From Pseudomonadota bacterium (GTDB lineage Bacteria; Pseudomonadota; Gammaproteobacteria; Burkholderiales; Burkholderiaceae_C): a DNA stretch of 64,000 bases. How positions within the stretch are numbered: position 1 is the first letter of the stretch; every line of letters begins with the position of its first letter. The stretch covers positions 80,209-144,208 of the forward strand of contig JAIUOW010000005.1 of NCBI GenBank assembly GCA_020161775.1, read 5' to 3'. This document shows positions 2,455-30,600 of the stretch, in pieces. The notes beneath the pieces were generated by a model that saw only the letters and a program-made list of their open reading frames with translations, had not been told where the DNA came from and ran no database searches. A program made the translations under genes and the position numbers.

Positions 2455-3123
2455 ATGTACGCAACCCTGCCCTATGCGGCCCCCGTCCTTGCGCCTTTCG
2501 CGCTCCCGCCCACCCATCCGGGCCCCGATGTGGACCTGACGGTCAAGGTCCTGCACACGCCCGAGCAGCGCCAGGACATCGCGCACCTGCGCAAGTACGC
2601 GGATTTCCGCTCCGAATACGAGGTCGATCCCGGCATGGCCGCGGTGGACCCGGTCAAGGACGCGCTGGGCCTGGTCATGGCCTTTTGCCGCGAGGGCGAG
2701 GCCATTGCCACCATGCGCTTCATCCCCACGGGCCATGGCATTACCCTGACCGAACGCTGGTGGGGTGGCTACGTGACTGACCCGGCCCTGCTGTCCCACC
2801 AGAGCTGGGAGGTGGGCCGCCTGGTCATGGCGCCCGAGCACCGCCAGGAAGGCCTGCTGCCCCAGTGCATGACCATGGCGTTTGTGCAGCTGCTCGAACT
2901 GGCCGACGTGCAGCACATGCACGCCACCTGCCACATGGCCATGACCCGCCTGTACCGGCGCTTTGGCTTTGGCATCCACGCCAAGCGCATCCATGGCGAC
3001 AAGGACTGCGCGCTGATCCACGGCCGCGTGGCGGATGTGGCGCGTTGCCTCAAGGTGCCGTTGCGCCAGGCCTTTGCCGCCCCCGCACAGGCCATTTCTG
3101 AGCAGGTGCCCGTGCTACAGTGA
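2455..3123 (+). CDS. GNAT-fold acyltransferase resembling autoinducer synthase / N-acyl amino acid synthase (LuxI/FeeM clan), copy 1
   Basis: Strong SD AAGGAGG at 2442-2448. The 222-aa product has motifs SWEVGRLVMAPEHR and TRLYRRFGF in its C-terminal half. It is a paralogue of the frameshifted gene at 16052..16710. Confidence 0.75.
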   Translation: MYATLPYAAPVLAPFALPPTHPGPDVDLTVKVLHTPEQRQDIAHLRKYADFRSEYEVDPGMAAVDPVKDALGLVMAFCREGEAIATMRFIPTGHGITLTERWWGGYVTDPALLSHQSWEVGRLVMAPEHRQEGLLPQCMTMAFVQLLELADVQHMHATCHMAMTRLYRRFGFGIHAKRIHGDKDCALIHGRVADVARCLKVPLRQAFAAPAQAISEQVPVLQ

Positions 3124-3140
3124 CCGGCCAAGGGAGTCAC

Positions 3141-5195
3141 ATGAAGGCGGCACTGCGCAACCTGTTCGAGTATTACCGCGCCCATCACGAAATGGAGCGG
3201 CCACTGCTGCAGTGGATCGGCGTGATGGGCTGCATCGCATTCCCGCTGTTCTATGTGATGCGGCGCGCCGTCGCCGCGCCCGGCTATGACGACCTGTGGC
3301 TGCGCCTGCTGGCTGCCGTGCTGTGCCTGGGCCTGGCTCTGCGCCGCCGCTGGCCGCAGCAGCTGCGCAGCTGGTACATCGGGTACTCCTGGTTTGTCGT
3401 CTTCTACTGCCTGGCGTTCTTCCTGTCCTACATCATGCTGCGCAACCACGGCGGCACGCCCGCGGTGGTGAACATGGTGGTGGGCGCCGTGCTGGTCATC
3501 CTGCTGGCGGACTGGCGCAACGCCATCACCATGCTGCTGGCCGGCTACATCGCGGCCGCCGTGGCGCACATGCTGACCGACCCGCAGCCCGAGCTGCTGC
3601 GCGAATTCATCTTCGCCGCTGGCGGCTCGTTGCTGCTGGTGGCTGGCGGCGCGCTGTACCACCAAGGGCAAAAGCGCGTGGAAATCCACCGCATGCGGCG
3701 GGTGTATTCGGGCTTGGCCGGCTCCATTGCCCATGAAATGCGCAACCCGCTGGCGCAGATACGCCATGCGCTGGACAGCATTGCCGCCACGCTGGCCGAC
3801 GGCACGCCCGGCGGCGGGCGCCAGCTGGACGCGGGCCAGGTCCAGGCGGTGCTGGCCATCGTGCAGCAGGGCCGCGACGCCGTGGCCCGTGGCCTGCAGG
3901 CCATTGACCTCACGCTGCAGCAGCTGCAGCCCCAGCCGCTGGAGGGCTCCCGGCTGCAATGGGTGAGCGCCCTGCCCGCGGTGCGCCGCGCGGTGGATTC
4001 CTTTGGCTACGACGAGCCGGGCCAGCGTGAGCGCGTGCGGGTACGTGATGACGGCGGCTTCAGCTTTCGTGGCGACCCGGCGGCGATCGAGCTGGTGCTG
4101 TTCAACCTGCTGAAGAACGCGCTGTACTACCTGCCGCTGTACCCGGCCATGACCGTGACCCTCACCGTCTCGGCACAGCCATCGCCGCGCATCGTGGTGC
4201 GCGACACCGGCCCTGGCATCCCGGCGGACCTGCTGCCCAAGCTGTTCCGTGAATTCCAGACCTCGGGCAAGGTCGAGGGCACGGGCCTGGGCCTGGCCTT
4301 TTGCCGCCGTGTGATGCAGGCGCTGGGCGGCGACATCCAGTGCCGCTCGGAGCACGGGCATTACACCGAATTCACGCTGTCATTCCCGCAGGCGGAACCA
4401 GCCCAGGTGGCGCCGCCGCCCGAGCCGGCGCCCGTCCAGCAGCCGCTGGCGGGCCGCACCGTGCTGGTGGTGGACGACCAGGCGCTGAACCGCGGCATTG
4501 CGCGCGGCATGGCCCGAAAGATGGGCCTGAACGTCATCGAAGCCGAGCACGGCCAGCAGGCGCTGGACCTGCTGGCCGGCGGTACCGTGCCGGACGTCAT
4601 CCTCATGGACATCAGCATGCCGGGGCTGGACGGCATCACAGCCACGCACCGCCTGCGCGGCATGCCCGGCGCGGCGGCCCGTGTGCCCGTGCTGGCGCTG
4701 ACCGCCAATGATTCAGCGGCGGTGCAGGACGCGGCCCGCGCGGGCGGCATGCAGGGCGTGCTGTGCAAGCCCATCGACGCCGCGGCGTTGCAGCGGGCGC
4801 TGGCCAGCGTGCTGCTGGCAGAGCCGCCCGCAGCGGCGGTGGGCTGTGCCCCGGTGCTGAACCTGCGGCGCATGGACGACATCCAGCGCCTGGGCCTGCT
4901 GCACGAACTGCTGCCAGGGGCGCTGGCCGACATGCGCCGGCACCTGCAGGCACTGGAGCAGGCGCATGAAGCGGGTCAGGCCGAGGGCGCCACCCAGGCG
5001 CTGCATGCGCTGGTGGGCCTGTCGGGCGAAGGCGGCGCGCAGGCCCTGCATGAGCGGGCCCGGCAGTGCTATGCCGACCTGCTGAACGGACAGCCGATGG
5101 ACGGTCAGGCCGTGGCAGACCTGCACAGGTTGCTGGCCGCCACACAGGAGGCGCTGTGGCGCCACTACGGGGTCCACCCGGCGGCGCCCGCCTGA
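3141..5195 (+). CDS. hybrid sensor histidine kinase (polytopic membrane sensor - HisKA - HATPase - REC - Hpt), copy 1
   Basis: ATG 3141 follows AAGGGAG. This start aligns MKAALRNLFEYYR with MINTWARLFAHYR of the paralogue; GTG 3120 is an alternative. The first ~190 aa are hydrophobic, with about 6 TM segments and short loops. Domain motifs: H-box SIAHEMRNPL, G2 box GTGLGLAFCRRV, REC DVILMDISMPGLDG, Hpt HALVGLSGEGGA. Confidence 0.85.
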   Translation: MKAALRNLFEYYRAHHEMERPLLQWIGVMGCIAFPLFYVMRRAVAAPGYDDLWLRLLAAVLCLGLALRRRWPQQLRSWYIGYSWFVVFYCLAFFLSYIMLRNHGGTPAVVNMVVGAVLVILLADWRNAITMLLAGYIAAAVAHMLTDPQPELLREFIFAAGGSLLLVAGGALYHQGQKRVEIHRMRRVYSGLAGSIAHEMRNPLAQIRHALDSIAATLADGTPGGGRQLDAGQVQAVLAIVQQGRDAVARGLQAIDLTLQQLQPQPLEGSRLQWVSALPAVRRAVDSFGYDEPGQRERVRVRDDGGFSFRGDPAAIELVLFNLLKNALYYLPLYPAMTVTLTVSAQPSPRIVVRDTGPGIPADLLPKLFREFQTSGKVEGTGLGLAFCRRVMQALGGDIQCRSEHGHYTEFTLSFPQAEPAQVAPPPEPAPVQQPLAGRTVLVVDDQALNRGIARGMARKMGLNVIEAEHGQQALDLLAGGTVPDVILMDISMPGLDGITATHRLRGMPGAAARVPVLALTANDSAAVQDAARAGGMQGVLCKPIDAAALQRALASVLLAEPPAAAVGCAPVLNLRRMDDIQRLGLLHELLPGALADMRRHLQALEQAHEAGQAEGATQALHALVGLSGEGGAQALHERARQCYADLLNGQPMDGQAVADLHRLLAATQEALWRHYGVHPAAPA

Positions 5196-12362: not shown

Positions 12363-13529
12363 TCAGGATACCAGCGGCTTGAAGTAAAGCGTGACGGTGG
12401 TGCCCTGCCCCAGCTGCGACTGGATCTGGATCGCACCGCCCGCAGCCTGCATCACTCGCTGGCAGAACATCAGGCCCATGCCGTTGCCACCGCTGTCCGC
12501 GCGCGTGGTCACGGGCTCATGGGTCAGGCGCGCCAGCACATCGGGGGGTATGCCGGGGCCGTTGTCGGCAAAGCGCATCCAGGGCCGCCGCACGCCGTCG
12601 GCGTCCGCGGCGTCCTGGCCGACTTCAAGGCACAGGCTTGCGCCGGGCTGGCCGCGCAGCGCCAGCAGTGCGTTCTTGGTCACGGTGCATAGCACCAGGT
12701 ACAGCAGGTCGCGCCGGCCGGGCAGCTGGAAGTCGGCCTCGATCCGGCTGCTGACGCAGGTGTGTTCGTTCTCCTCGAACGGAAACTCGTCCAGCAGCGC
12801 GGCGACCAGCCCGCTGGCGTTGACGGTCTGCGGCAGGGCGCCAGGGTAGGCGTCGCGCGCCGACTGCACAAAGGTGGACACCAGCGACTGGCAGTACAGC
12901 GCGGCGCGCCCTGCCCTTTGCAGCGCGCCCACCAGCTGGCCGGGTCGGTCCTCGCTGAATTGCGCCACGCCCGCCGGGCCGTCAGGGCCGGGCGCCTGGT
13001 AGCGGTCAGCCACCGATCCGACGAAGCCCCGGATGGTGCCCAGCGGCGTGTTGAGCTCATGCGCCAGAAAGCCCAGCGTTTCGCGCAGGGCCGACACGCG
13101 GCCTTCGTTCAGGGCACGCTCAAACGACTGCGCGCGGTGCAGCGCCAGGGCCTCGCGCAGCGCTTCGCGCGTGAGCGTATCGTCCAGCGGCTTTTCCAGG
13201 ATGCGCAGCACCTTGCCCTGGTTGACGGCGGCAATGGCCACGTCTTTTTCGGCGTAGGCCGTGGCCAGCAGCCGGATCAGGTGGCGATGCTCGCGCTGCA
13301 CGGTGCGCAGCAGCTTCATGCCGTCCCGCTCGGGCATGCGGTAATCGGTCATCAGCACGGCAAATTCGTGCTCGCGCTGGCTGAGCAGGGCCAGCGCCTC
13401 GCCGGCGCCGCCGGCGGTGACGATGGTGAACTCGTCACCAAAGGCCCGGGCAAACCATTTGCGCGAGGTGGCTTCGTCGTCCACGAACAGGATGGCGCGG
13501 GGTTCCTGCAGCGATTCGGGTGCGAGCAT
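12363..13529 (-). CDS. response-regulator receiver fused to histidine kinase core (REC-HisKA-HATPase)
   Basis: N-terminal REC (ILFVDDE...LMTDYRMPERDGM), H-box LGFLAHELNTPLGTIRG and G2 box GNGMGLMFCQRVMQ. It starts 36 nt downstream of the hybrid kinase stop, so same operon. Confidence 0.85.
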   Translation of the reverse strand: MLAPESLQEPRAILFVDDEATSRKWFARAFGDEFTIVTAGGAGEALALLSQREHEFAVLMTDYRMPERDGMKLLRTVQREHRHLIRLLATAYAEKDVAIAAVNQGKVLRILEKPLDDTLTREALREALALHRAQSFERALNEGRVSALRETLGFLAHELNTPLGTIRGFVGSVADRYQAPGPDGPAGVAQFSEDRPGQLVGALQRAGRAALYCQSLVSTFVQSARDAYPGALPQTVNASGLVAALLDEFPFEENEHTCVSSRIEADFQLPGRRDLLYLVLCTVTKNALLALRGQPGASLCLEVGQDAADADGVRRPWMRFADNGPGIPPDVLARLTHEPVTTRADSGGNGMGLMFCQRVMQAAGGAIQIQSQLGQGTTVTLYFKPLVS

Positions 13530-13565: not shown

Positions 13566-16055
13566 TCAGGCCGCGCGCAGGTGCGACACGCCCAGGGCGT
13601 ACTGGCGAAGCGCGCCTTCGGTGCGCACGGCCAGCGCGCGGATTTCGGCAGGCCAGTCGGCCCCACCGGGCCAGCGATGAGCTTCGAGCATGGGCACATA
13701 GTAGCTGCGCACGCGCTGGTACAAGGCGGCGGCACCCGCCTCGCCGCTCATGCCCAGCAGCGAATGCAAGGCGTCCAGGCCGGCGTCCAGGTCACCCTGG
13801 GCCACGGCTTCATCCAGCCGGTCCACAAGGCGCGCCATCTCCGGCAGGTAGTCGCCCAGCAGCTCGTCGATCATGCCCAGGCGCCGGTAGTTTTCAAGCC
13901 GCCGCGAGTCCAGCAGGTCGTCGATGGTGCCCGCCGGCGCCAGCGTGCCCTGCGCCACCGGCCGCACCGCCCTGCCCGTGAGCCGGCACAACAAGGTGTA
14001 CAGCAGGGACACATCCACCGGCTTGGTGATGAAATCATTCATGCCCGCCTCGCGGGCCGCGTTCACGGTGAACGCGTCGGAGTGCGCCGTCAGCGCGATG
14101 ATGGGCAGGCTGGCCAGCGCCGGGCCACTGGCGCGGATGGCGCGGGCCGTTTCCAGGCCGTCCATGCCGGGCATGTTGATGTCAATGACCAGTGCGTCCC
14201 ATTGGGCGCGCCGGCTGAGGATGTCCAGCACCTCGCCGCCATGGCTGGTCTCCACCACCTCGGCGCCGGCATGGCGCAGATGGGCCGCCACGGCCTTGCG
14301 GTTCCAGGCGCTGTCATCGGCCAGCAGCACAGCGCAGCCCGCCAGCAGCGCGGCACCGGCCGAGACGCCGGGGCGGGACAGCGCGTCGCACAGCGCCTGC
14401 ACCAGCACCCGCTGATCGCTGGGCTTGCTGACAAAACCGTCAATGCCGGCCTTTCGCACCTTGACGCCGGCCAGGTGCGCCGGCTCGCTGGTATGAGCCA
14501 CCAGGGCCACATCGCGGTTGGCGGGCGCGGCGCCCTGGCGTATGGCCGCAGCCAGCGCATAGCCATCCATGCCGGGCATGTTCAGGTCCAGCAGGACCAG
14601 GTCGTAATGCTCGCGCGTCAGCATCTGCATCGCTCGGTAGCCGTCGGCGGTTTCGTCCAGCGTGGCGCCCAGCGGCTGCAGCTTGTGGCGCGTGGTCAGG
14701 CGCAGGGCGGCGTCGTCATCGACCAGCAGGATGCGCCGGCCCTGCAGCACGCCGCGCGCCTGCGCCAGCACGGCGGCATGGCTGGCCTCGGCATCGGCCT
14801 GCGCCACGGCGGGAAAGCCCAGCGTGAACTCGGTGAACTCGCCGGGCACGGACGCGCATTCGATGCTCCCGCCAAAGGCCCGCATCACCCGCTGGCAATA
14901 GGCCAGGCCCAACCCGGTGCCGCCGGACTTGCCCATGGAGCGGAACGGCTCGAACAGGCCAGGCAGCACCTCGGGCGCAATGCCCGGCCCGGTGTCGCGC
15001 ACGCGCACCTGGTGCGGCTGCACGGTGATGGTCAGGCGCACACCGGGGTACTGGGCCCGGTAGTACAGCGCGTTCTTGATCAGGTTGAACAGCACGAACA
15101 GATAGGCGGTCTCGTCGCCACGGAAGCTGAAATCCTCCACCACGTCCACCTGCACGCTGCGCCGGGCATCGTCGTCCTCGTAGCTGTATTCCTGCACCGC
15201 CTTGCGCGTGGCCTCGGCCGCGGACAGGTGCGCAAAGCCGGCGGTGTCCAACGGCTTGGCATTGACCTCGTCCAGCGTCATGGCGATCACCTGCAGGCCG
15301 CGGTTGACCGCGATTTCGCTTTCGGCCAGGTGGCGGTACAGCGCATCGACCTCACGCCCGCCCAGGGTCTGCGGCTGCGCGGCCGCGCCGGGCGCGGGCA
15401 GTGCCTGCTGGATGTTGTGCAGGCTGTGCTTGAGCTGGGACAGCGGGTGGCGCATCTCGTGCGCGATGGAACCCGCCAGCGCCTGCGTGGCACGCAGCTT
15501 GCGCTCGGCGTCAATCTGCTCGGTGGAAAACTTGAACAGGTTACCGCCAATGACGATAAGGATGAACGCGGGCAACTGCGCGACCAGGTCCATGGGGATA
15601 CGGGGGTTGGGCGTGGTGGCCATGTAGATGCCCGCGGCCATGGCGACGCCGGTGAACAGCATCACCAGGGTGTTGCGCCAGTCGGTCAGCAGGACGAGGA
15701 AGCACAGGGTGATGAAGGCGTTGGAAATGGCGGGCACACCGCCGCCACGCTGCAGGGCCACCAGCGTTGTAAAGCATGGCAGGCAGTAGAGGACCGCGAA
15801 GTAGGAATAGGCGATGTAGTGCCGCTTGAACTTCTGGGGCCAGTGGTCCTTGAGTGCAAGAAGCGCCAGCATCAGGATGGCGCTGCCGCGCAGCAGGATG
15901 TCGTCGAACAGCTGGGCGTTGGGCCGCGTGAAGCGGATGAAGTAGAACACCAGCAACGAGACCACGCCCAGGTAGCCCATGTATTTGAGCCGCGGCGGCC
16001 CATAGGCGTGATAGTCGCGGTAGTGGGCGAAAAGCCTGGCCCATGTATTGATCAT
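13566..16055 (-). CDS. hybrid sensor histidine kinase (polytopic membrane sensor - HisKA - HATPase - REC - REC - Hpt), copy 2
   Basis: Hydrophobic N-terminal ~190 aa. Motifs: H-box SIAHEMRHPLSQ, GTGLGLAYCQRV, two REC domains (LLDLNMPGMDG and VIDINMPGMDG) and Hpt HSLLGMSGEAGA. ATGA overlap with the upstream GNAT stop. Confidence 0.9.
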   Translation of the reverse strand: MINTWARLFAHYRDYHAYGPPRLKYMGYLGVVSLLVFYFIRFTRPNAQLFDDILLRGSAILMLALLALKDHWPQKFKRHYIAYSYFAVLYCLPCFTTLVALQRGGGVPAISNAFITLCFLVLLTDWRNTLVMLFTGVAMAAGIYMATTPNPRIPMDLVAQLPAFILIVIGGNLFKFSTEQIDAERKLRATQALAGSIAHEMRHPLSQLKHSLHNIQQALPAPGAAAQPQTLGGREVDALYRHLAESEIAVNRGLQVIAMTLDEVNAKPLDTAGFAHLSAAEATRKAVQEYSYEDDDARRSVQVDVVEDFSFRGDETAYLFVLFNLIKNALYYRAQYPGVRLTITVQPHQVRVRDTGPGIAPEVLPGLFEPFRSMGKSGGTGLGLAYCQRVMRAFGGSIECASVPGEFTEFTLGFPAVAQADAEASHAAVLAQARGVLQGRRILLVDDDAALRLTTRHKLQPLGATLDETADGYRAMQMLTREHYDLVLLDLNMPGMDGYALAAAIRQGAAPANRDVALVAHTSEPAHLAGVKVRKAGIDGFVSKPSDQRVLVQALCDALSRPGVSAGAALLAGCAVLLADDSAWNRKAVAAHLRHAGAEVVETSHGGEVLDILSRRAQWDALVIDINMPGMDGLETARAIRASGPALASLPIIALTAHSDAFTVNAAREAGMNDFITKPVDVSLLYTLLCRLTGRAVRPVAQGTLAPAGTIDDLLDSRRLENYRRLGMIDELLGDYLPEMARLVDRLDEAVAQGDLDAGLDALHSLLGMSGEAGAAALYQRVRSYYVPMLEAHRWPGGADWPAEIRALAVRTEGALRQYALGVSHLRAA

Positions 16056-16710
16056 TGCGTCGTCCTCTCCCTATGACCAGCCGATACCGCTGCCCGCACC
16101 GAGGGCACATTACCATGGATCAGGGAATATGACTCACCCGACTGAAGGCACGCATCTTTGACAAGCACGGAAAACCCGAAGCGCCTGTAAAGACGGCTCA
16201 ATACCGGGGTGCAAGTCGCCAGAAAATTCGCTGAAGGAATCAGTTCAACGAAACGCATGAGCGTCAGGGAAAAGCAGGTTTTCAGGACTTCTGGCTGGGT
16301 GCGGTGCGCGGGTGCCAGAACGAGCCGCCCCACCTCCCAGCCATCGTCATACACCTGGGGTGCCAGTTGCGGCAACCCCTGGAGGATGGTGTCGCAGGGC
16401 GCAAGTCCGCGACCGATCGGGACGAGGCGGATGGTGCCGATGAACTCGCCGTGCAGTTCGAAAGCACCCACAAACCCCACCTCGTCTCTTTTTTTTCGAG
16501 CGCAACGAAAGCCGGGTCCTGCCTGACCGCGTCGGGCAGGCTGAGTTCTTCGCGCAGGTGAAGCACGCCGGCAATTGCCTGCGGCGTGGTCAGGTGGCGA
16601 AAACGTATTTCTTCGGTGCGGGGCTGCGGGTACCGCAGCGGATCGATGGCGTACGCCGCAGCCTGGCCCGAGCCAGGCTGCCACGAAGCCGGCGCGTGAT
16701 GTGTATTCAT
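16052..16710 (-). pseudogene. LuxI/FeeM-like GNAT acyltransferase, copy 2, interrupted by a 1-nt frameshift at an A8 tract (pseudogene, homopolymer sequencing error, or recoded gene)
   Basis: The N-terminal frame (ATG 16710 after AAGGGAG) reads MNTHHAPASW...AFVALEKK. The C-terminal frame reads RDEVGFVGAFELHGEFIGTIRLVP...GWEVGRLVLAPAHR...SRLYRRFGF, ending at 16052. The frames switch at T8 16489-16496. A9 would give a 219-aa protein colinear with the 222-aa copy 1. Confidence 0.8.
16489..16496 (-). repeat. A8 homopolymer (A_AAA_AAA slippery heptamer in the upstream frame) at the frameshift site
   Basis: Direct reading of ctcgtctcTTTTTTTTcgagcgc on the plus strand. Confidence 0.95.
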
Positions 16711-16932: not shown

Positions 16933-18696
16933 ATGTCCAGCACACGCGCCCGTTCGCCCGCAACGGCGGCTGCTGCCTGCCTGGCCGCGCTGACCCTCCT
17001 GGCGCCGGGCTACCCCAGGGCCCAGGCAACGGTCCCGGCGCCGGAGCAGGCGGCTCAGGAGGGCCTTCGCCGCCAGGAGCAGCGCAACCGGGAGCAGCAA
17101 AAGTCAGCCCAGCCGCAGGCAGACCAATTGAGGCACGAGGCAGCGCCCCTGCCAGCGCGCGAGTTACCGCAGGAGTCCCCCTGCTTCACTATCCATGAAC
17201 TGGCGCTGGGCGGCAGGGATGCGGGCCGCTTCGGCTGGCTGCTGGACGCAGCCCTGCCCTACCTGCGCCGCTGCGTGGGTGCCCAGGGGCTGAGCTTCAT
17301 TGCCGCTGGAATGGACCAGCAGCTGCGCGACCTGGGTTATGCCACCACCCGCGTGGCGCTGCCCGCGCAAAACCTGCGCGCCGGCCAGTTGCTGGTGCAT
17401 ATCGAAGCCGGCCGGGTGGCCGACATCCGCGCTGTCCGGGCGGACGCCGCACCCGGCACGCCTGACACGCCCGACACCCAATGGGGCACATGGCGCAACG
17501 CTTTTCCCGTCGCGGCGGGCGACATCCTGAACGTGCGCGACCTGGAGCAAGGCGTGGAGAACATGAAGCGCCTGCCCAGCCAGGCTGTGGCCACGCGGCT
17601 GGAGCCGGGCGACGCGCCCGGCTCCAGCGTGCTGTACATCGAGCGCAAGGGCGGCGCGCTGAAGGACCGCCTGCGCGGTGGCGCCACGCTGGACAACTCC
17701 GGTGGCGCAAGCCTGGGGCGCACGCAGCTGTCGGCCAACCTTGCCTTTGACAACCCTTTGGGCCTGAACGATGTCGTCACGGCCAGCCTGAACACCAACG
17801 CTGAACGGCCCACAGCCACGCACCGCAGCCAAGGCGCGAGCATCAGCTACAGCCTGCCCTGGGGCTACAACCTGCTGACGCTGCACGCCAGCAACAACCG
17901 GTTTGCGCAGTACGTCCAGGGAACGACCGTGCGTTTCCTTTCCAGCGGGCGCAGCCAGGGCGCCGAGGCGCGGCTGCAGCGCACGGTGCTGCGCACCGCC
18001 AGCACCAAGGTGGGCGTCTATGGCGCGGTGTCCACGCGACGGGCCATCAGCTATCTGGATGATGTGGAGGTCGTCATCCAGCGCCGGCGCACCACCAGCG
18101 TGGAAGCCGGCCTGAGCTACAAGCACCTGTTTGAAAAGTCCAGCCTGGAGCTGGACCTGGGCGTGCGCCGCGGCATGCCCTGGCACGGCGCGCAGGACGA
18201 CTTCGCATCTGCGCGCGAAGGCGGGCTCACGCTGCGGCCCAAGGTCTGGAGCCTGAGCGGCGCCTACGCCACAGATGTGACCCTGGCCGGGCGGGCGCTG
18301 CAATACAGCGTCCATCTGCGGGGCCAGCACACCCGCGACACCACGCTGTCGGCGGACCAGATGGCCATTGGGGGGCGATCCAGCGTGCGTGGCTTTGACG
18401 GCGACGCCGTGCTGCTGGCTGAAAACGGCATCGCCTTGCGCAATGAGCTCACCGCGCCGGTGAAGCTGTGGGACGGCATGGACACCGCCGCCCTGCTGGC
18501 CATTGACTATGGCCGCGTCTGGGGCCCCAGCGACATCCTGCTGACCGGCAAAAAGCTCGCCGGACTGGCGCTGGGCCTGAAGGGCCGCCGCGGCGCCACC
18601 CAGTTTGAGGTCACGCTGGCCACACCTCTTGCCAAACCCGATGGCTTTGCCACGCGGGACCTGAGCCTGTACCTCTCATTGACCCAGGGTTTCTGA
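16933..18696 (+). CDS. cdiB: two-partner secretion outer-membrane transporter (ShlB/FhaC/HecB family), CdiB
   Basis: Signal peptide MSSTRARSPATAAAACLAALTLLAPGYPRAQA and a C-terminal beta-barrel ending ...LYLSLTQGF. It lies immediately upstream (1-nt gap) of a TPS-domain exoprotein. Confidence 0.85.
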   Translation: MSSTRARSPATAAAACLAALTLLAPGYPRAQATVPAPEQAAQEGLRRQEQRNREQQKSAQPQADQLRHEAAPLPARELPQESPCFTIHELALGGRDAGRFGWLLDAALPYLRRCVGAQGLSFIAAGMDQQLRDLGYATTRVALPAQNLRAGQLLVHIEAGRVADIRAVRADAAPGTPDTPDTQWGTWRNAFPVAAGDILNVRDLEQGVENMKRLPSQAVATRLEPGDAPGSSVLYIERKGGALKDRLRGGATLDNSGGASLGRTQLSANLAFDNPLGLNDVVTASLNTNAERPTATHRSQGASISYSLPWGYNLLTLHASNNRFAQYVQGTTVRFLSSGRSQGAEARLQRTVLRTASTKVGVYGAVSTRRAISYLDDVEVVIQRRRTTSVEAGLSYKHLFEKSSLELDLGVRRGMPWHGAQDDFASAREGGLTLRPKVWSLSGAYATDVTLAGRALQYSVHLRGQHTRDTTLSADQMAIGGRSSVRGFDGDAVLLAENGIALRNELTAPVKLWDGMDTAALLAIDYGRVWGPSDILLTGKKLAGLALGLKGRRGATQFEVTLATPLAKPDGFATRDLSLYLSLTQGF

Positions 18697-18697
18697 C

Positions 18698-21600
18698 ATG
18701 CACCCACGCACCCGAGCGATCCTCAACCGCCTGGCGCAACGCCTGAGCGCTGCAGACCATGCACTGAAAACCCAGCTGACCCAGCCGATGTCAGGCCCTG
18801 CACCACGCCCCTGGCTGCGCCGCGTGGCCCGGGTGTTCACATCGCTGTTCATTGCGCAGACCGTGATGGCTGGGGTGCCCGCGTATGCGCAAGTCACCGC
18901 CGCACCCGGCGCGCCTGCTGGCCAGAAGCCGTTGATCGACGCGGCGGCCAACGGCACCCCCATCGTGCTGATCGCGCCGCCCAGCCAGCGCGGCGTCAGC
19001 CGCAACCAGTACGACCAGCTCAACGTCGGCCCCAAAGGCCTGATCCTGAACAACAGCACCGCCAATGTGCAAACGCAGATCGGCGGCTGGATCAGCGGCA
19101 ACCTGCAGCTGGGCCGCACACCGGCGCGGATCATCCTGAACGAAGTCACCGGCCCTCAGGCCAGCCAGCTGCGCGGCACGATCGAAGTTGGCGGACAAAA
19201 AGCCGACATCGTGATCGCCAACCCCAACGGCATCACCTGCAGCGGCTGCGGCTTCCTGAACGCGGACCGCGCCACGCTCACCACCGGCACACCGCAGATC
19301 GGCGCCAACGGCACGGTCACCGGCTTTGACGTGCGCCAGGGCGTGATCCAGATCGGCCCCGAAGGCTTGAACGCAACCGAACAACAGCAGCTGGACCTGC
19401 ACGCCCGCGGCCTGGTGATTGAAGGCGAGGTGTACTCGCAGAACCTGCAGGCCGTGATCGGCGCCAACCAGGTGGTTTACGGCACGCTGCATGCGCTGGT
19501 GCAGGCCACCGCGCAAGACGGCACCGGCGAGGCGCCGCGCCTGGCAGTGGACATCAAGGCGCTGGGCGGCATGTATGCCGGGCAAATCTACCTGATCGCA
19601 ACCGACAAAGGCCTTGGCGTCAACAGCACCGGGCGCGCAGCCACCCTGTCGGGCAACCTGGTGCTGTCGGCCAACGGCGACCTGACGCTCAAGGACACCT
19701 ATGCAACGGGCGATGTCCGGCTCGCGTCGGCCGGCAAGACCACCCTGACGGGCCAGACCGTGGCTGACGGCGCGGTGACCATCAACGCCGGGGACCAACT
19801 GACCCACAGCGGTGCGCTGCAGGCGCCCACGCTGCAACTGAACGCCCCTGCCCTGCACAACAGCGGCAGCATCACCCAGACGAAGGCAGGCGCCAACCTG
19901 GGGCTGACGCTGCCCGGAGGCCTGAACAACAGCGGGCAAATCTACACGCCGGGCAACCTGACGGTGCAGGCTGGCGCCGTCAGCACCGGCGCAGCCCATG
20001 GAACGATGACAGGCCAGCTGAGCGCCGGAGGCTCCCTGCAGGTATCGGCCGCCCAGCTGCAACTGACCGGGCAGCAACTGGCCGCCAACGGCAACATCAC
20101 CCTGGACGCCAGCGGCAAGCTGGACGTGACAGGCACCACCGTATCGGCCAACGGGCAGACCCGGTTGGCCGGTAGTGAAATCGCGCTGGAGCGTGCGCGG
20201 ATTGCGGCTGTGGGCAATGTGCAGATCACCAGCCAGGGCGTGGTCACGGCGAACGCGGCGGACATCAGCAGCAACGCGACGCTCAGCGTCCAGGGCAGCC
20301 GTGTAGATGTCAGCGCGGCCACCATGACGGCCGTGGTCACGGCCAGTATCAAGGCGGACGGTGAAATCAAACTGGACGGCAGCCAGCTTGCCGCGGGCCA
20401 GCGCGTGGAGCTGGTGGGCCAAGGCATCAGCACGCCCGGCGCGACGGTCACCGCAGACAAAATCACCATCGACGCAGGCGCGGGCGCACTGACCAACCCC
20501 GGCGGCAAGATCCTGGCCAGCTCCGCTGAAGCGGACGCGCTCACGGTCAATGCGACCGGTATCACCAACCAGGGCGGCGAGCTGCGCGCCAATGGCGGGC
20601 TGACGCTGGACGCACGCGGCGGTGTGATCGACAACACGGCAGGCGTGATCGCGGGCACCACCGGCGCGTTGACCAACCTGGGCGGCCTGACCAACAAGGG
20701 TGGCATCCTCTACACGCAAAGCGACCTCTCCATCGCCAGCACCGCGCTGGACAACAGCGAAGGCGCCATCGTCACCGCCGGCAGCCTGAGCGTCAGCACG
20801 CCCGGCCAGACCATCAACAACACCAAAGGCCTGATGCAGGCGGGCGGCTCGGTCAGCCTGGACAGCGGCAGCGCGGACCTGAAGAGCGCGGACGGTACCG
20901 TCGTGGCAGGCACGCAACTGACGGTCAACGCCGGTACGGTGGACACGGCGGAAGGCACGCTGGCCGCGGGCACCGACATGACCGTGACGGCGGGCCAACT
21001 GCAGGCGGGCAGCGCCAAGCTGGGCAGCGGCGGGGCCATGAACATCACGGCCAGCGGCAATGCCGGCTTGGGCACGGCGGAAGTCGGCGCCGGTGGTGAT
21101 CTGTCCATTCAAGCCGGTACCGTGCAGGCCACCGGCGCCAACGTGGCCAGCAACGCCAATGTGCAGGTCACCGGCGGCAGCATCACCGGCGGCAACTGGT
21201 CAGCGCAAGGCAACCTTGCGGCGACCAGCGCGGGTGCGCTCAACGTCACGGGCGGCAGCCTGCTGGCGGGCGGAGACCTGACAGCACAAGGCCAGGGCAT
21301 CGTCACGGACAACGCCAGGCTGGGCGGCCAGACGGTCACGCTGAACGCGGGCACGGGCGCCTTGAGCAATGTGGGAGGCCAGATCCACGGCAGGGCCAAC
21401 CTGCACATCCAGGCCAGCCATCTGGCCAACCGCAACGGCACGGTGGCCACCGGCGGTGCCCTGACGCTACAGGGTGCCGCGCTGGAGAACCACGCGGGCA
21501 CCCTGCAGGCCGCGGGCAACCTGACCATCCATACGGCAGGCCAGGCCCTGGACAACACCGCAGGCAAGATCATCTCGGGCGGCAACACGATCGTACAGGC

Positions 21601-24600
21601 CGGTGCATTGAGCAACAGCGGCGGCACGATCAGCGCGGGTGGAACGGCCCATGTGCAGGCTGCGGCCCTGAACACGGTCCAGGGCCAGATCAGCGGCACC
21701 CGCCAGCTGGACATCCTGGTGACCCAGCGCCTGACAGCCGTTGGCGCCACGCTGGGCACAGAGGGCAAGTTCACGGCCAGCGCGGGCGAGATCGACGCCC
21801 GGTCTGCGACGGCCACGGCTGGCGAAACGCTGGCGGTCGCATCGTCAGGTGCGCTGGATATGCGCAGTGCCACCATCACGGCCCAGGGACCGCAGGCGGG
21901 TGACATCCAGATCACCGGCGGCAGCGTCACCGCAGGCAACGCCGCGATCACGGGCGGCGCAGGCGTGGCCCTGGCCTCGGGTGGCGCGATAGACGTGGAC
22001 GCCGCGAACATCGCGGCCCTGAGGACACTGGCCGTGCAGGCGGGTGCAGCGCTGACGGCTGATGCCGCCACGATCCAGACCAACGAACAACTCACGATCA
22101 CGGGAACGACGGTTGCCGCGACCGGCGCTACGCTGTCAGCCGGCGGCAAAGCGGAAGTCACAGCCACCACCGGCGCAGCCACTTTGAACAACGTCAGTCT
22201 GATGGCTGGCGACACGGCGGCAGTGACTGCCGTCGGTATCGCCGCCACAGGTGCCTCCATCGGCGCGGTGAACAACGTGACGCTGAACGCCGGTACCGGC
22301 GATTTCACGGCACCCAACGCTTTGGTGCAAAGCCAGAGCGCCAGCATCAGCCTGAACGCGGCCAACGTCAACGTGACGGGTAGCCCGGCGGCAGGCGCGG
22401 CACCCACCACGGGTTTGCTGGCAGGCCAGGCCATCGCGATCACCGCCACCGGCGCAGTGGACGTGTCGGGCGCTGCTACCTACGCCGGCACCGATATCAC
22501 CATTACGGCGCAAGGCAGCATCATCAACAACGCCGGGCGGATCATCGCGGGCAACCAGGCCAGCCTGAGCGGCGCCGTCCTGAACAACCGGGGCGGCACC
22601 ATCGACGCCAACGGCCCCATCGCCGTCAGCGTCACCACCGGCCAGGTCAACAACGACCAGGGCCGCATCAGTACGCGCGACGTGCTGACCATGAGCACAC
22701 CCACAGGCGGCGCTGCAGGCCCGCTGACCAGCCTGACCAACGCAGGCGGCGTCATTGAAACAACAGGCGCGCTTAACGCCCAGCTGCAAAACTTCAACAA
22801 CGAAGGCGGCAGCGTCGTCGCCCTGGCTGGCCTGACCATCACCGGCGGCCCGGTGACCAACACGGGCGGCCAGCTGGCGTCGCAAGGCAATGTCAGCGTC
22901 AACACCCAGGGTGGCGCCTTCAATGGCGACGATGGCAAGGTGCTCAGCACGCTAGGCAACATCATCCTTACCGCTGGCGCCACGACGTTGAACAGCGCGA
23001 CCGTGACGAGTGGCGGAAGCACCACGTTCACCACGGGTGATCTGCAGGCCAGCCAGGCGCGGATCGGCGCGCAAGGGAACTTCAACGCGACGGCCAGCGG
23101 CGCCGTGACCGCAGACCGGGCCGTGATGGCCGCTGGCGGCAGCGCGGGCATCGCGGCAACGCAGGGGATTGCCGTCAATGGCGGCAGCGTCAGCGCACAA
23201 ACCATCCGCCTGGATGCGGGAAGCGGCGTACTGAACAACACATCGGGTAACCTGACCGCACGGACCACCACGGGCACGGCCATGACGCTGCAAGGCCAGG
23301 GCCTGACCAATGACGGCGGCATGATCGCCTCCAATGCCGACCTGAGCATCAACGCCGGTGCGGGCAGCTCGAGCAACGCGGCGGGGCAGATTCTGGCGGT
23401 GGGCGCAGCCGACATCCGCTCGACGGGACTGAACAACGTGGGCGGCACCATCGCCGCCAACGGCAACCTGACGATCAACGCGGCCCAGGCCCACGCGAAC
23501 GCCGCCACCGACAGCACTGGCGGCACGATCCAAAGCGGCCAGAACATTGCGCTCACGGCGGGCTCCACGACACTGACCAACGCCACCATCACCAGCGGCG
23601 GCAATACCACGCTGAGTACAGCAGCGCTGCAGGCCAACCAGGCCCGCATCAACGCAGGAGGCAACTTCAGTGCAACATCCAGCGCGGCAGTGACCGCGCA
23701 GCAGCTGGCATTGGCGGTGGGGGGCAGCGCAGCCATTACGGCCGCCCAAGGCATCGACCTCAGCGGGGGGAACGTCAGCGCCCAGACGATCAACGCGACC
23801 GCAGGCGGTGTCCTGAACAACACCTCCGGCAACCTGACGGCCAGCGCCACCACTGGCACGGCGCTCACGATGCAGAGCCAGGGCCTGGTCAACGACCAGG
23901 GCACCATCGCCTCCAATGCGGGCCTGAGCATCAACGCGACCACGGGCAGCGCCAGCAACGCTGCCGGCCGGGTGCTGGCGCTGGGCGTGGCCGATGTGCG
24001 GTCCACCGGCATGAGCAACGTGGGCGGCACCATGACCTCCAACGGCAACCTGACCATCAACACCGTTCAGGCCCACGCGAACGCCGCCATCGACAGCACG
24101 GGCGGCACGCTGCAAAGCGGCCAGAACATCACGCTGACCGCAGGCGCCACCACATTGACCAACGCCACCGTCACCAGCGGCGGCAACACCACGCTGAACA
24201 CAGCAGCGCTACAGGCCAATCAGGCGCGCATCAACGCACAGGGCAACTTCAGCACAACATCCAGCGCGGCAGTGACCGCGCAGCAGCTGGCCCTGGCAGC
24301 GGGCGGCAGCGCCGTCATCACGGCTACCCAAGGAATCGACCTCAGCGGGGGCAGCGTCAGCGCCCAGACGATCACCATGAACGCGGGTGGCGTGCTGAAC
24401 AACACCTCCGGCAACCTGACCGCTAGCGCCACCACTGGCACTGCCCTCACGATGCAGAGCCAGGGCCTGGTCAACGACCAGGGCACCATCGCCTCCAATG
24501 CGGGCCTGAGCATCAACGAGACCACCGGCAGCATCAGCAACACCGCCGGGCGTGTGCTGGCATTGGGCGCGGCTGAAATGCGGTCCACCGGCCTCGCCAA

Positions 24601-27600
24601 CGTGGGCGGCACGATTGCGTCCAACGGCAACCTGACGATCAATGCGGCTCAGGCTCACGCCAACGCCGCCACCGACAGCACGGGCGGCATGCTGCAAAGC
24701 GGCCAGAACATCACGCTGACGGCGGGCGCCACGACGCTGACCAACGCCACCGTCACCAGCGGCGGCAACACCACGCTGAACACAGCAGAGCTGCAAGCCA
24801 ATCAGGCGCGCATCAATGCACTGGGCAACTTCAGCGCAACGTCCAGCGCAGCGGTGACCGCGCAGCAGCTGGCCCTGGCGGCGGGCGGCAGCGCCGCCAT
24901 CACGGCAACCCAGGGCATCGACCTCAGCCGGGGCAGCGTCAGCGCGCAGACCATCGCCCTGAGCGCCGGGGGCGTCCTGAACAACACCGGCGGTAACCTG
25001 CACGCGGGCGCCACCACGGGAGACGCCCTCACCTTGCAAAGCCAGGGCCTGGTCAACGACCAGGGCACCATTGCTTCCAACGCCGGTCTGAGCATGCAGG
25101 CGAACACGGGCAGCGTCAGCAATGCCGCTGGCCGCGTGCTGGCGCTCGGCGCGGCCGATGTGCGGTCCACCGGGCTGAACAACGCAGCCGGGACCATCGC
25201 CTCCAACGGCGACCTGACGATCAATACAGTCCAGGCCCACGCGAACGCCGCCACTGACAGTACGGGCGGCACGCTGCAAAGCGGTCAGAACATTGCGTTG
25301 GCGGCAGGCAGCACCACATTGACCCACGCCACGGTCACCAGCGGCGGCAATACCACCCTCACGACTGGCGTTTTGCAGGCCAGCCAGGCCCGCATCAACG
25401 CACTGGGCAACTTCACCGCCACCTCCAGCGGCGCGGTGATGGCCGACCGGATGGCCTTGGCGGCCGGTGGCAGCGCAGCCATCACCGCAGCGCAAGGCAT
25501 AGACGTCAACCGGGGCAGCGTCAGCGCCCAGACCATCAACCTGAACGCCGGTGGCGGCGCGCTGAACAACAACGCAGGCAGCATCCAGGCCGTGGGCGCG
25601 CTCGACATCCGGTCCACAGGCCTGAACAACCGCGCCGGGACCATCGCCTCCAACGGCGACCTGACCCTCAACGCGACGCTGGCCAACGCCATCGCCACGC
25701 TGGACAGCACCGATGGCGCCGTTCGCAGCGCCCAAGCCATCACCCTGACGGCGGGCGCCACCACCTTGACCAACGCCACGGTCACGAGCGGCGGCAACAC
25801 CACGCTGAACACGGCCGACCTGCAGGCCAGTCAGGCCCGCATCAACACGCTGGGCAACCTTACCGCCACCGCCAGCGGCGCGGTGACAGCCGACCAGGTG
25901 ACCCTGGCGGCGGGCGGCAGCGCGGCCATCACGGCTACGCAGGGCATCGATGTCAACCGCGGCACGGTGAGCGCGCAGACCGTCAACCTGAATGCCGGCG
26001 GCATCCTGAACAACAACGCAGGCAGCCTGACCGCGACGGGTGCGGCCGACATCCGATCCGCCGGCCTGACCAACGTGGACGGCACCATCGCCTCCAACGG
26101 CGCGCTGACGGTGAATGCAGCCCAAGCCAACACGGACGCTGGAACGAACAACACGCGCGGCACGATCCGCAGCGCCCAGTCCAGCGTCACGCTGACCACA
26201 GGCGCGCTGAACAACGCCAACGCAGACATCGGCGCAGCCGAAGACGTGCGGATCACCGCCACTGGCGCGCTGACCAACGACCAGGCCCGCATCGTCGCTG
26301 GACGGGACCTGACCCTCGGCGCCAATGCTGTGGGCAACACATCGGGCCTGATTGCAGGCAACCGCAACGCAACGCTGACGGTGGGCGCGGGCGGTGTCAC
26401 GAACACCAGCGGCACCATTCAGGCGGCAAACGACCTGACCGTCACGTCCGCAGGTGACGTGGCCAACACCAGCGGCCAGCTGCTGGCGGGCCACCAGCTG
26501 ACCCTGAGCGGCGCGGCGCTGACCAACAGCCAGGGCCAGATCGGCGCGCAAACCGGCAGCGCCACGCTGGCCGTCACCTCCTACATCAACATCGGCGGCA
26601 GCGTGGTGGCGGGCGGCGCCCTGACGCTGGACACCCAGGGCGGCGCGCTCACGGCCAATGGGTCCACATTGGCCAGCGGCGCCGACATGACGCTGCGCGC
26701 GGGCGCGGCCCAACTGAGCGATGCGGCTATCACGGCTGGCGGCTCCATCAACGCGCAGGTCACGAGCCTGGAAGCTACCCGCGCCAACGTGCAGGCAGCA
26801 GGCAACCTGAGCGCCACGGCGGGCGCCGGTGCTTTCAACGCAGCCAACAGCACCTGGCAGGCAGGCCAGGCGGTGGCGCTCACGGGCGGCGCTGTTGCCG
26901 TGACCGACGCCACAGTCTCAGCCAACACGACGGTCGCCGTCACCGGCGCCAGCGTGGACGCCACGCGCGCCAGCATCACCAGCCCGGGCGACGTGAGCGT
27001 GGTGGCCACCCACGGTGCGCTGGACATCACCCACGCCAGCCTGTTGGCGGGCCGCGACCTGACTGCGACCGGCACCGGCGCGGGCACCACCACCGGCGCT
27101 CAGGCCCTGGCCGGGCGCGACCTGACCCTGGGCAACGGCACGGCCTTTGACTTTGCCGCAGCCAACCTGCAATACCAGTTTGGCCGCGATCTGACGGTGC
27201 GCGCGCAAGGCATCAGCACGGCGGGCCAGCAAGTGTCCGCACGCAACCTGACGCTGGACGCGGGCAGCGGCCAGCTGAACAACCAGGGCGGCACCCTGCA
27301 AGCGACGGGCACGCTGACCGCCAGCGGCACGGGCCTGAACAACCAAAGCGGTGTGATCGCGGCCAACGGCGCCGTCACCGCCAGCGCAGGCACCGGCACC
27401 CTGAACAACGCGGGCGGCAAGATCTACAGCACCCAGGGCGCTACCAGCGTCGCCGGTGCAGCCATAGCCAACGCCACCGGCACCCTCAGCGCCGCCACCG
27501 ACGTCAGCATCACCGGCGGCACGCTGAACAACTCGGGCAACACCATCGCGGCAGGCCGCAACCTGACCGCCACCCTGAGCGGCGCGGTGAACAACGCAGG

Positions 27601-30600
27601 CGGCCGTCTGATCGCCAATACCGGTGCGGCCAGCGTCATGGCCGGCGACGTGAACAACGCCACCGGCGTCATCTCTGGCAGCCACTCGGTCACCATGACC
27701 ACGCGTGCCATCAACAACGAAGGCGGCGTCATTGAATCGGGCGCAGGCGGCATCAGCATCGACACGCAAGGCCACACGCTGACCAACACGGACAGCGGCA
27801 CCACGCGCGGCATCGTCAGCCAGGGCAACATCGCCATCGCGGCCGGTGACATCAAGAACCAGCTGGGCTACATCGGCGCCAATGGCAGCCTGAACATCAC
27901 GCAGTCCAGCACCATCCACAACCAGGGTGGCACCCTGCTCGGCCTGGGTGGCGTATCGGTCACCACCGGCATGCTGAACAACCAGGGCGGCAGCGTGCTA
28001 GGTGGCGTGGATGTGAACGTCAATGCAGGGACGGTGAACAACGGCAACTCCGGCACGATCTATGCCGCACGCGACCTGACCGTCAACGCCAACAGCATCG
28101 ACAACAGCAACACCCGAAACGGCGCGTACACCACGGGCCTGCTTGCCGGGCGCAACGCCAGCATCACGGCCAGCACGATCAACAACGCCAGCGGCGCCAT
28201 CGTGGCGCTGGGCGACGCCACCGTGCGCGCCAGCAGCAGCCTGAACAACACCCAGGGCCAGATCTCGGGCAACGCCGTCACCATCCAGACCCCGAGCCTG
28301 ACCAACACGGCAGGCCGGGCCGACGCCCAGCAGCGCATGACGCTGCAAGTGCCGCAGTTCAGCGCCGACGGCGTGCTGGCCAGCAACGGCGCGATGAACC
28401 TGGAACTGCAGGGCAACTACGTGAACACCGGCGTGGTCAGCGCCAGTGGCGACCTGAGCATCAGCACCACGGGCAGCTACACCAACCTGAACCGGGTGAG
28501 TGCGCAGAACAGCCTGAGCCTGACGGCCGCAGGCATCGACAACGCGTCCAACGCCACGATTGACTCCCAGCGCACAACGCTGAACGCAGGCGGCGGCACC
28601 ATCAACAACGCAGGCCTGATCAACAGCACGCAGGGCCAGACGAGCATCGCCGCAGGCACACTGAACAACACCGGGCGCATCTACGGCGACAGCATCACGC
28701 TGAGCGCCAGCGTGAACAACAGCGCAGCAGCGGGCAACGGCGCCGCCATCGCCACGCGCGGGGGCAGCGTCACCATCAACGGCGCCCTGAACAACACCGA
28801 CGACGCCCTGGTGCTGAGCCTGGGCAACATCCAGATCAACGGCAGCGCGCGCAACGACGGATCGACCATCAACGCGATGGGCAACGTGACCATTACCGGC
28901 CCGTTGACCAACACGCACGTGGGCCTGCAAACGGGCAGCCAGACGCGCACCGACCCTGCCCACGCGGTGTACATCACCCCCAGCGGCAGCACCACCCGGT
29001 ACAACGTAGGCGACCTGGCCTGGACGGGCCACAGCGGCGGCCACTGGGTGTTGCCCAGCGCCACCTACCCGCTGGGCAGCTTCGGCGCGGACCCCAAGGC
29101 GCCTGCCATGCAATGCGGGCTGGACGGCAACGGTGGTGAAGGCGGCAACTGGGTGTGCAACCCCGGCTACGGCGTGCAAGACCCTATCTGGGCATTGATG
29201 GGCGTGGCCAGCCCGGGCAACCCGCCGCCAGACATGGCCATGGGCTGCATGGACTTTGGTGGGGAAACCGGCAACGCGCAGCGCATCACCAGCGGCGCCT
29301 GCGGAAGTTACTGGGTCAGCGTGGACGCCTACGAAGCAAGCAAGGCCAACGCCTACGCGCAACTGGACAACCGGATCAACGCCTTCAATGCGGACCTGAA
29401 CGCCCGCACGCTGATCGACTGGTACGAAACCACGATCACGGGCACGACCATCACGGAAACAACCGTCGTGCCCGGCCGGGCGGCCAAGGTACTGGCCGGG
29501 GGCAACATCAGCATCGGAGGCGGCAGCAACATTGACAGCATCATCGTGGCCGCAGGCAGCCTGAACGGCGGCGGCATGAGCAACATCGCCACCCAGGGCA
29601 CGCGCCAGACCAGCGCCACCGGCTACCAGGTGTTCAGCCACCGCACGTGGAGCGGCGGCTTCAGCAGCAGCTACGGGCGCGAAACCAGCGCACCGCAGCC
29701 CATCGCCGACGCCCCGGTGACCGAGACCCTCACCCTGCCCGTCCTGCAATACCAAAGCAACGGCAACCCCAGCGGCCCCGCAGCGGGCGGCAGCAGCACC
29801 CCGGTGGGCGGTGCCACAGCCAGCGTGGTGGGTGTTGGAAGGAACATCGGCACCGCACGCAACGCCAGCGGCGCAGGCACGGCCAGTGCGGCGGTACAAG
29901 CCGGCACGCCCACCGCCGCAACCGGTGGCGCGGTGCAGGTCGATGCCACCACCACCGCCCAGGCGCAAAGTGCTGCGGCCGTGAATGGCGCACAGATCAC
30001 AGGGGGCAGCGCAGTCACTGCTGGTGCTGGCAACACCCCGGCAGGCAGCGGCGCAGTGATCACGGGCACGGGCGCAGCCCCCACGGGAAGCACTGCCGTC
30101 ACCGCAGGCACGGGCGCGAACCCCACGGGCAACGCTGCGCTGACCGCAAGCACAGGCAACAACGCCACTTCAGGCACGGCCGTCACGACAAGCCCGAACA
30201 CAAACCCGAACACAGGCGGAACCGTCCAAGCCACCGCTGGCACCCAGCCAAACGGCGCCATCACCGCCAGCCTGAGCGCCGCCCCCGACGCCGCCCTGCC
30301 CGGCAGCGTGATCGCAGCGGGCGTGCGCGCGGGCCAGCTGGCCGCCATCACCACATCGCTGACCAACTTTGCAGCGGCAGCCGCCATCCAGCCCAAACAA
30401 GCCAGCGAGGTGGACACCAGCACCCGGCGCAGCGCCCCGGTCACCGTGAAGGCGGCAGGCTACAGCACGGTGCGCGCCAGTGGCGCCGTTCGCGCTCCCG
30501 GCAACCAGCTCTTCAGCATCAACCGCAACCCACGCGCCCCGCTGGTGGAGACAGACCCGGCCTTCACCGGCTACCGCAACTGGATCAGCAGCGCCTACAT

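Follow-up and report, generated by a model that had tools for sequence, protein, structure and literature searches.

How a complete enzyme could be made from a gene that is cut in two by its own reading frames is the question raised by a locus in a 64,000-nucleotide stretch (hereafter the window) of a Pseudomonadota bacterium of the Burkholderiaceae_C (GenBank assembly GCA_020161775.1, contig JAIUOW010000005.1, positions 80,209 to 144,208). The gene is the second of two GNAT acyltransferase genes in the window (GNAT copy 2) and is split exactly at a run of eight A (A8). A preliminary description of this DNA had listed four options for the split, namely a pseudogene, a homopolymer error, a phase switch or a -1 recoding site, and had treated it as the oddity of a single genome. 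We find instead that the frameshift is family-wide, and the comparison of homologous sequences indicates that the gene is very probably expressed through conserved programmed -1 recoding at the A8 run.

The coding strand of the gene, which is the minus strand of the window, reads GCG CTC GAA AAA AAA GAG ACG AGG TGG, where positions 16496-16489 form a run of exactly eight A. Its parts and the paralogue used for comparison are laid out as follows.

16489 to 16710, minus strand: open reading frame A (ORF-A), the N-terminal part of the GNAT fold; 74 codons from M1 to K74, ending ...ALEKK; 67 bits in frame A with the hidden Markov model (HMM) of the N-domain
16489 to 16496, minus strand: the A8 run, the candidate slip site, phased in frame A as GA[A AAA AAA], that is, as the heptamer A_AAA_AAA
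16485 to 16497, minus strand: the 13-nt block GAAAAAAAAGAGA, containing the rare Arg codon AGA and conserved across 74 loci
16282 to 16488, minus strand: the frame-A tail, to be read by unshifted ribosomes; 68 codons and then a stop, not conserved
16052 to 16489, minus strand: ORF-B, read in the -1 frame and covering the C-terminal two thirds of the GNAT fold; R75 to Q219, 145 codons followed by a stop; 206 bits with the C-domain HMM
2455 to 3123, plus strand: GNAT copy 1, the in-frame paralogue; 222 aa, PF21926 (FeeM), with GTC AAG GAC in place of the A run

ORF-A starts at the ATG at 16710, 7 nt downstream of a Shine-Dalgarno (SD)-like AAGGGAG at 16724-16718, and a second in-frame ATG is found at 16761. 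ORF-B begins with RDEVGF one base back from ORF-A, reads ...KKRDEVGFVGAFELHGEFIGTIRLVP and ends at 16052, where its stop codon shares an ATGA with the start codon of a hybrid histidine kinase gene (HK2). If no shift takes place, frame A reads ...AFVALEKKETRW (in a longer stretch, ...DPAFVALEKKETRW...) until the stop at 16282. The protein joined by a -1 shift has 219 aa and aligns without a gap across the junction with the 222-aa paralogue (33% identity over 188 residues, E 8e-31). The preliminary description had been accurate on the sequence, the frames, the stop and the ATGA junction, as well as on the predicted product with its junction peptide ALEKKRDEVGF. The window contains two A8 runs where 0.23 would be expected from shuffled sequences. 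The other one lies at 35328-35335 (plus strand), about 170 nt past the end of a giant ORF at 18698-35161, and an A7 run is found at 35217-35223.

Tract length was compared in orthologues and in contigs of the same organism, as the preliminary description had advised, and A8 proved essentially invariant. All ten independent contigs from JGI, ENA and Logan that encode an identical kinase (L001-L010) carry A8, and a search of the JGI metagenome collection with an A6-A11 pattern returned one contig, again with A8, which brings the total to 11 contigs of this organism, all A8. In three of them (L002, L004 and L005; JGI 3300056788, 3300056827 and 3300056759), the genes located 3' of the kinase are fragmented or fused (AMP-binding, Peripla_BP_6, BPD_transp_2), which suggests that these assemblies are rich in indels; A8 was nonetheless kept there.

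For the wider family, one genome per GTDB species was scanned using as seeds only the C-terminal motifs WEVGRLVL and RLYRRFGF, so that nothing at the junction influenced the sampling. Together with both window copies, the 80 loci returned make up a set of 83 gene copies, drawn from about 80 species; carriers were found among Ramlibacter, Caenimonas, Polaromonas, Hydrogenophaga, Acidovorax, Paraburkholderia, Ralstonia psammae and others. Two separate HMMs, one of 42 columns ending in LEKK (N-domain) and one for the domain starting at RDE (C-domain), were searched against three-frame translations of these loci. In 74 of the 83 copies, the N-domain is encoded in the +1 frame with respect to the C-domain, and the two meet at G-A8-G, where the N-domain extends by exactly one base into the C-domain. 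In 75 copies the two HMM matches are adjacent and share a single nucleotide, with N-domain E-values of about 1e-4 to 1e-21, and ORF-B stays open for 139-181 codons in the 74 copies (the second copy of locus L065 runs off the end of the locus).

Among the 77 copies that bear a run, 75 have A8, 76 are out of frame and none is brought in frame by an altered tract length. The variants are few. L083 (R. ginsenosidimutans) has A9-GGAC, which still requires a -1 shift and would give EKKKD; L073 (Ramlibacter sp. MMS24-I3-19, CP190017, a complete chromosome) has A7, which needs +1/-2 and may be a sequencing error; and L054 (Ramlibacter montanisoli) has G-A8-GAT, being in frame by loss of one GA, with a second frame break further on. 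Six copies are in frame without any run: L039, L059, both L088 copies, L090 and window copy 1. On a neighbour-joining tree of the C-domain (~135 residues, no support values), the in-frame relatives appear as scattered tips inside the frameshifted clade, with L090 and the first L088 copy grouping with window copy 1; such a tree is too weak to give the direction of change or to tell in-frame forms that are secondary from original ones. Two GNAT copies occur within a single 6-kb stretch in L065 (from 145 and 3321), both A8-frameshifted, and in L088 (from 3070 and 5739), both in frame.

In a protein search, just 5 of the 120 best homologue clusters spanned more than 80% of the repaired protein. 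The other matches listed are mostly 125-160 aa long with 50-65% query coverage, and those retrieved begin just past the junction (MGFVGAF..., MVGAF...). Several longer homologues (P0001, P0003, P0012 and P0066, 96-55% identity) display ...RKKRD... after Arg-rich nonsense, which corresponds to frame-B read-through as in the window. ORF-B alone is listed by NCBI as a C-terminal 'N-acyl amino acid synthase FeeM domain-containing protein'.

The constraint at the run extends to individual nucleotides. When the 74 sites were aligned on the run, 12 of the 13 positions of GAAAAAAAAGAGA were invariant (2.0 bits) and the A following the first 3' G was nearly so (1.8 bits), as against 0.1-0.4 bits at the flanking third-codon positions. 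Elsewhere in the same genes, AAA and AAG are used in a ratio of 57:155 and AGA, AGG and CGN in a ratio of 27:51:790. Three consecutive disfavoured codons are thus kept in every lineage, which is not what drift would produce. The amino acids leave a single position of the block free, the third base of AGA; 72 loci have A there and 2 have G, a preference opposite to the background one and for which we found no explanation. By these sequence measures, the slippery motif at the junction is conserved beyond the amino-acid requirement.

Selection was then compared between frames. Using pooled Nei-Gojobori estimates over 274 moderately diverged pairs, the ratio of nonsynonymous to synonymous substitution rates (dN/dS) of the N-domain was 0.59 in its own frame A and 1.30 for the same bases off-frame, and that of the C-domain was 0.20 in its own frame B and 1.65 off-frame. 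These are rough figures, with dS near saturation and a short N-domain stretch, and the contrast between frames is clear: ORF-A and ORF-B each appear in the alignments to be under purifying selection in their own frame. The frame-A tail varies from 3 to 84 codons among homologues and gives a dN/dS of 1.65 in frame A.

The joined product resembles a single enzyme domain. Either a -1 slip or an A9 transcript would produce LEKKRDE at the junction, and the in-frame relative P0100 encodes the same LEKKRDE through CTC GAA AAG AAG CGC GAC GAG; other in-frame relatives have five codons at the same place (EQRRD, ERQKD, EKKRD) and no run. The fused protein, modelled with AlphaFold2, had a mean pLDDT of 83.6 and a pTM of 0.78, and K74/R75 lay in the middle of the helix formed by residues 66-78. 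Foldseek matched the model to whole GNAT domains over 175-200 columns, and the highest query-normalised TM-score, 0.58, was that of the N-acyl amino acid synthase FeeM (2G0B; TM 0.58/0.66-0.68). Because the junction falls inside a helix and the alignment spans whole domains, the N-terminal 74 residues are taken to be integral to one domain and not a separate protein. The repaired copy 2 itself had no Pfam or NCBIfam match at E<=0.01, whereas GNAT copy 1 scored 30.6 bits with PF21926 (cutoff 27) and many orthologues carry precomputed PF21926 matches; the assignment as FeeM-like therefore comes from the paralogue, the orthologues and the fold. A PDB sequence-profile search returned the acyl-homoserine lactone (AHL) synthase TofI (3P2F) only at a non-significant E of 0.31, and membership of the LuxI-type AHL synthases is not supported, no significant similarity to solved AHL synthases being found.

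The slippage itself, its efficiency, the operating mechanism and the signalling role are all points that we infer from these patterns, and the scheme would run as follows. Translation would start at the ATG at 16710 and proceed for 74 codons to ...L-E-K-K, and in a fraction of events the frame would move back by one base at A8. This could happen by ribosomal -1 frameshifting, the two Lys-tRNAs re-pairing on A_AAA_AAA, or by transcriptional slippage, RNA polymerase adding one A on the T8 template to give an A9 mRNA. Either route would lead to the same 219-aa ...ALEKK-RDEVGF..., a complete FeeM-like GNAT acyltransferase, and ribosomes that stay in frame A would produce an N-terminal fragment of 142 aa whose tail is not conserved. 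The slip site would thus cap enzyme output at a fraction of ORF-A translation and hold the output of the synthase low relative to that of the receptor kinase. The ribosomal and transcriptional routes are not separable from sequence; if the A7 of L073 is real, rescue there would be possible only at the transcript level. High-GC Betaproteobacteria usually carry tRNA-Lys(CUU) as well as tRNA-Lys(UUU), and the presence of the former should leave heptamers that end in AAG poorly able to shift and give the advantage to motifs made of A only; a scan of the window for its Lys-tRNA repertoire found zero tRNA genes. In reporters with unassisted poly-A tracts, frameshifting reached 10% with 7 A, 40% with 9 A and 63% with 11 A (PMC3711429), and by analogy with the 7-9 A constructs the shifted fraction at the GNAT site may be perhaps 10-40%. 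An eight-A run restores about a tenth of the apoB product, some insertion sequence (IS) elements use 8 A, and productive slippage on 8 A occurs in some organisms, the usual threshold being 9 (PMC1088944).

Several observations weigh against programmed recoding. At least seven relatives are in frame, hence the frameshift is dispensable in some lineages, and eight A is at the lower edge of the run lengths known for productive transcriptional slippage in bacteria. The preliminary description had seen no SD-like stimulator or strong downstream hairpin in the window, and this holds across the 74 homologous sites: RNAalifold, applied to eight windows between -61 and +108 of the 74 anchored sequences, detected no consensus structure, the folding z-scores of individual sequences around the site averaged -0.3 to -0.5, and any SD-like 4-mer was present in only 9 of the 74 loci. 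As the site is unlike dnaX and many IS elements in having neither stimulator nor structure, its efficiency may be low, although stimulators are not obligatory for this class, several IS and poly-A recoding cases doing without them. The N-domain dN/dS of 0.59 is only moderately below 1 and comes from a short ungapped alignment at saturated dS. Lastly, it is gene adjacency alone that points to the product of the enzyme and to its link with the kinase.

With the same break in 74 of 83 copies and in 11 contigs of the organism, and with selection on both halves, recoding is the one of the four original options that stands. A fifth explanation, which we consider improbable, survives best among the rivals. 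In a split gene without recoding, ORF-A and ORF-B would be made as separate polypeptides, translation of ORF-B starting at an internal GTG or ATG with the help of the A-rich leader; in variants of this idea the fragments assemble non-covalently, or the C-terminal piece alone matters. Gene callers and NCBI do give products of 139-156 aa beginning with MGFVGAF or MVGAF, and one homologue is annotated as two adjacent NCBI genes, MES2975262.1 (124 aa, hypothetical) and MES2975263.1 (150 aa, N-acetyltransferase). In the window, moreover, GAGGTGG precedes a GTG located six codons past the run, and a start codon lies 3-6 codons past the run in 39 of 75 loci. These start positions are not conserved, however: the nearest frame-B start codon ranges from +3 to +85 codons after the run, and about a third of the loci have their first one at +19 or beyond, where the conserved GFVGAF...IGTIR strands would therefore be lost. 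The GTG itself derives from a variable Val codon (GTG/GTC/GTT/GTA), and in several species frame-B stops are found as near as 2-5 codons upstream of the run. The junction also falls within a helix of a single compact domain in the AlphaFold model, and the invariance of A8-GAGA would be left unexplained although AAA and AGA are disfavoured elsewhere.

Very improbable, in our view, is a phase-variable contingency locus, in which replication slippage would toggle the tract between A8 (OFF) and A9 (ON) so that only a subpopulation makes the enzyme. Homopolymers of 8 nt are indeed mutable by slipped-strand mispairing (PMC3711429), single A7 and A9 variants exist (L073 and L083), and consensus assemblies are compatible with rare ON subpopulations. 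Yet 76 of the 77 run-bearing copies are out of frame, the lone in-frame one (L054) is still A8, and the A9 variant still needs a -1 shift. A8 was found in all 11 assemblies of the organism, which come from different samples, whereas known contingency loci often show both ON and OFF lengths among isolates, and the in-frame relatives have lost the run rather than lengthened it.

A plain pseudogene, decaying after a 1-bp deletion, has next to nothing to recommend it: a homopolymer frameshift is the commonest inactivating lesion and the related locus L054 has a second frame break, but the same lesion recurs in 74 copies, whose proteins share 40-80% identity and which carry no other disabling mutation, and dN/dS is below 1 for both halves in their own frame only. 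A sequencing or assembly error hiding a true A9 tract is hardly credible at all, since, although homopolymers are classic error sites and the A7 of the complete chromosome L073 may be one, A8 is found in 11 independent contigs and 74 homologous copies from many projects, isolates and metagenome-assembled genomes alike.

The neighbours of the split gene bear on what a recoded enzyme might do. Two of them follow it in the same orientation.

13566 to 16055, minus strand: hybrid histidine kinase HK2, 829 aa, with a membrane N-terminus, HATPase_c, two receiver domains and Hpt; the putative cognate receptor
12363 to 13529, minus strand: receiver and HisKA/HATPase protein, 388 aa, located 3' of HK2

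An HK2 orthologue is found directly 3' of the GNAT gene in 72 of the 83 copies at 46-87% identity, a count in which the in-frame copies, whose kinases match less closely (38-41% identity), are included, and in the window GNAT copy 1 is likewise followed by its own hybrid kinase at 3120-5195. The 388-aa protein occupies the same position in L001, L003 and L006-L010 and may be part of the HK2 phosphorelay. From this adjacency it is reasonable to propose that the GNAT protein is the synthase of a signal sensed by the neighbouring kinase. The preliminary description had gone further and suggested a receptor kept with little or no signal made, a cheater-like state; this is not supported, the frameshifted organisation being normal and ancient across the clade and not a strain-specific loss. 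In Paraburkholderia, Ralstonia and related loci (L060, L070, L072, L080, L087, L056, L062 and L082), the kinase is missing 3' of the GNAT gene and the frameshift is kept. The GNAT gene of L060 is flanked upstream by a UPF0182 protein gene and downstream by one for a Haem_oxygenas_2 protein (iron-containing redox enzyme). We also considered whether HK2 could be a LuxN orthologue and rejected it: with NCBIfam LuxN (NF041945), HK2 scored 256 bits, far below the cutoff of 1550, and only the kinase/receiver core was aligned (model positions 452-829), the membrane sensor lying outside the alignment.

Other features of this neighbourhood were recorded. A weak terminator-like hairpin with a T-run lies at 16252-16227 (minus strand), about 30 nt after the frame-A stop at 16282 and within ORF-B, and could in principle couple unshifted translation to termination before the kinase; against such coupling, the number of terminators is within chance expectation and frame-A stop positions differ between species. 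The promoter and terminator scan of the window was otherwise uninformative. Divergent from the GNAT gene is a two-partner secretion (TPS) pair, a ShlB/FhaC-type TpsB at 16933-18696 (plus strand, 587 aa) and the giant ORF at 18698-35161 (plus strand, 5487 aa). A product with a PF05860 TPS domain is called beside TpsB in L010, and TpsB is cut to 332 aa beside IS21-type genes (rve and IstB) in several contigs of the same organism (L002, L004, L005 and L006).

Programmed -1 recoding at the GNAT run can be set beside several known systems. As in dnaX, the site lies in a chromosomal, non-mobile bacterial gene, on a conserved A run of Lys codons, with a -1 frame change at the RNA level; E. coli dnaX uses a -1 ribosomal shift at A_AAA_AAG, and Thermus thermophilus dnaX transcriptional slippage at A9. 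In E. coli dnaX, the shift is accompanied by an SD-like element and a stem-loop, neither of which was found at the GNAT site. The dnaX shift also shortens the protein, and two useful products are made in a fixed proportion, whereas the GNAT shift would be needed for the only complete enzyme; furthermore, the GNAT heptamer ends in A and not G, and the run is of 8 and not 9-10. That ribosomal and transcriptional slippage can serve the same gene in different species is known from dnaX itself (PMC3711429, PMC1088944). The transposases of the IS1, IS3 and IS630 groups have overlapping ORF-A and ORF-B fused by -1 slippage on A6G or A7-A9 (PMC1088944, PMC3711429), and there too the fusion is the functional protein, its amount limited by low efficiency. 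Unlike these mobile elements, which often have a downstream structure, the GNAT gene is a housekeeping-type operon gene with a conserved kinase neighbour and no such structure. The Mg chelatase GeneTack cluster is a non-mobile family, including Burkholderia and Delftia, with an unassisted A run and a conserved -1 shift (PMC3711429), but it concerns another protein family and its run varies in length with efficiency scaling accordingly, whereas the GNAT run is fixed at 8 and followed by four invariant bases. A conceptual precedent is provided by FseA of ICEMlSymR7A, where the requirement for a frameshift restrains the key protein of an autoinduction circuit and damps noise (PMC5009743); there the shift is a +1 ribosomal one, the protein is a transcription activator and not a synthase, and the role was shown experimentally. 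The FeeM/PF21926 synthases share the GNAT fold and are structurally related to LuxI-type AHL synthases, FeeM working in a biosynthetic cluster and not beside a sensor kinase. The GeneTack survey and its supplements, a 2014 heptamer survey, a 2016 recoding review and keyword searches, which together are not exhaustive, yielded no account of the site and no mention of its family or of any frameshift in N-acyl amino acid synthases. Mechanisms of this kind are already known, and the novelty lies in the gene family and in its strict 13-nt signal.

We tentatively raise one further idea, which on present evidence is rather doubtful: A8-GAGA could be a regulatory device, with slippage responding to the state of the cell and gating an acyl-amino-acid-type signal for the adjacent hybrid kinase. 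Candidate inputs may be the ATP/GTP balance, which would act by making RNA polymerase pause ahead of the invariant G, or the rare tRNA-Lys(UUU), through changes in its supply or modification. If true, this would constitute a recoding-controlled cell-cell signalling module common to Comamonadaceae and Burkholderiaceae.

Few conserved recoding sites are known from bacterial genes that are not mobile, among them those of dnaX, prfB, copA and Mg chelatase, and the GNAT genes would add a family with about 75 species-level examples and a strict 13-nt signal lacking accessory RNA structure. They would offer a clean system in which to ask how an unassisted A8 works and which of the two slips, RNA polymerase or the ribosome. 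For annotation, the consequence is that the family is called as a truncated 'N-acetyltransferase' of 140-155 aa, so that databases mostly hold fragments of the enzyme. The slip site would also place a throttle, translational or transcriptional, on the putative synthase of a synthase-kinase pair, and the output of a signalling enzyme may thereby be limited independently of promoter strength.

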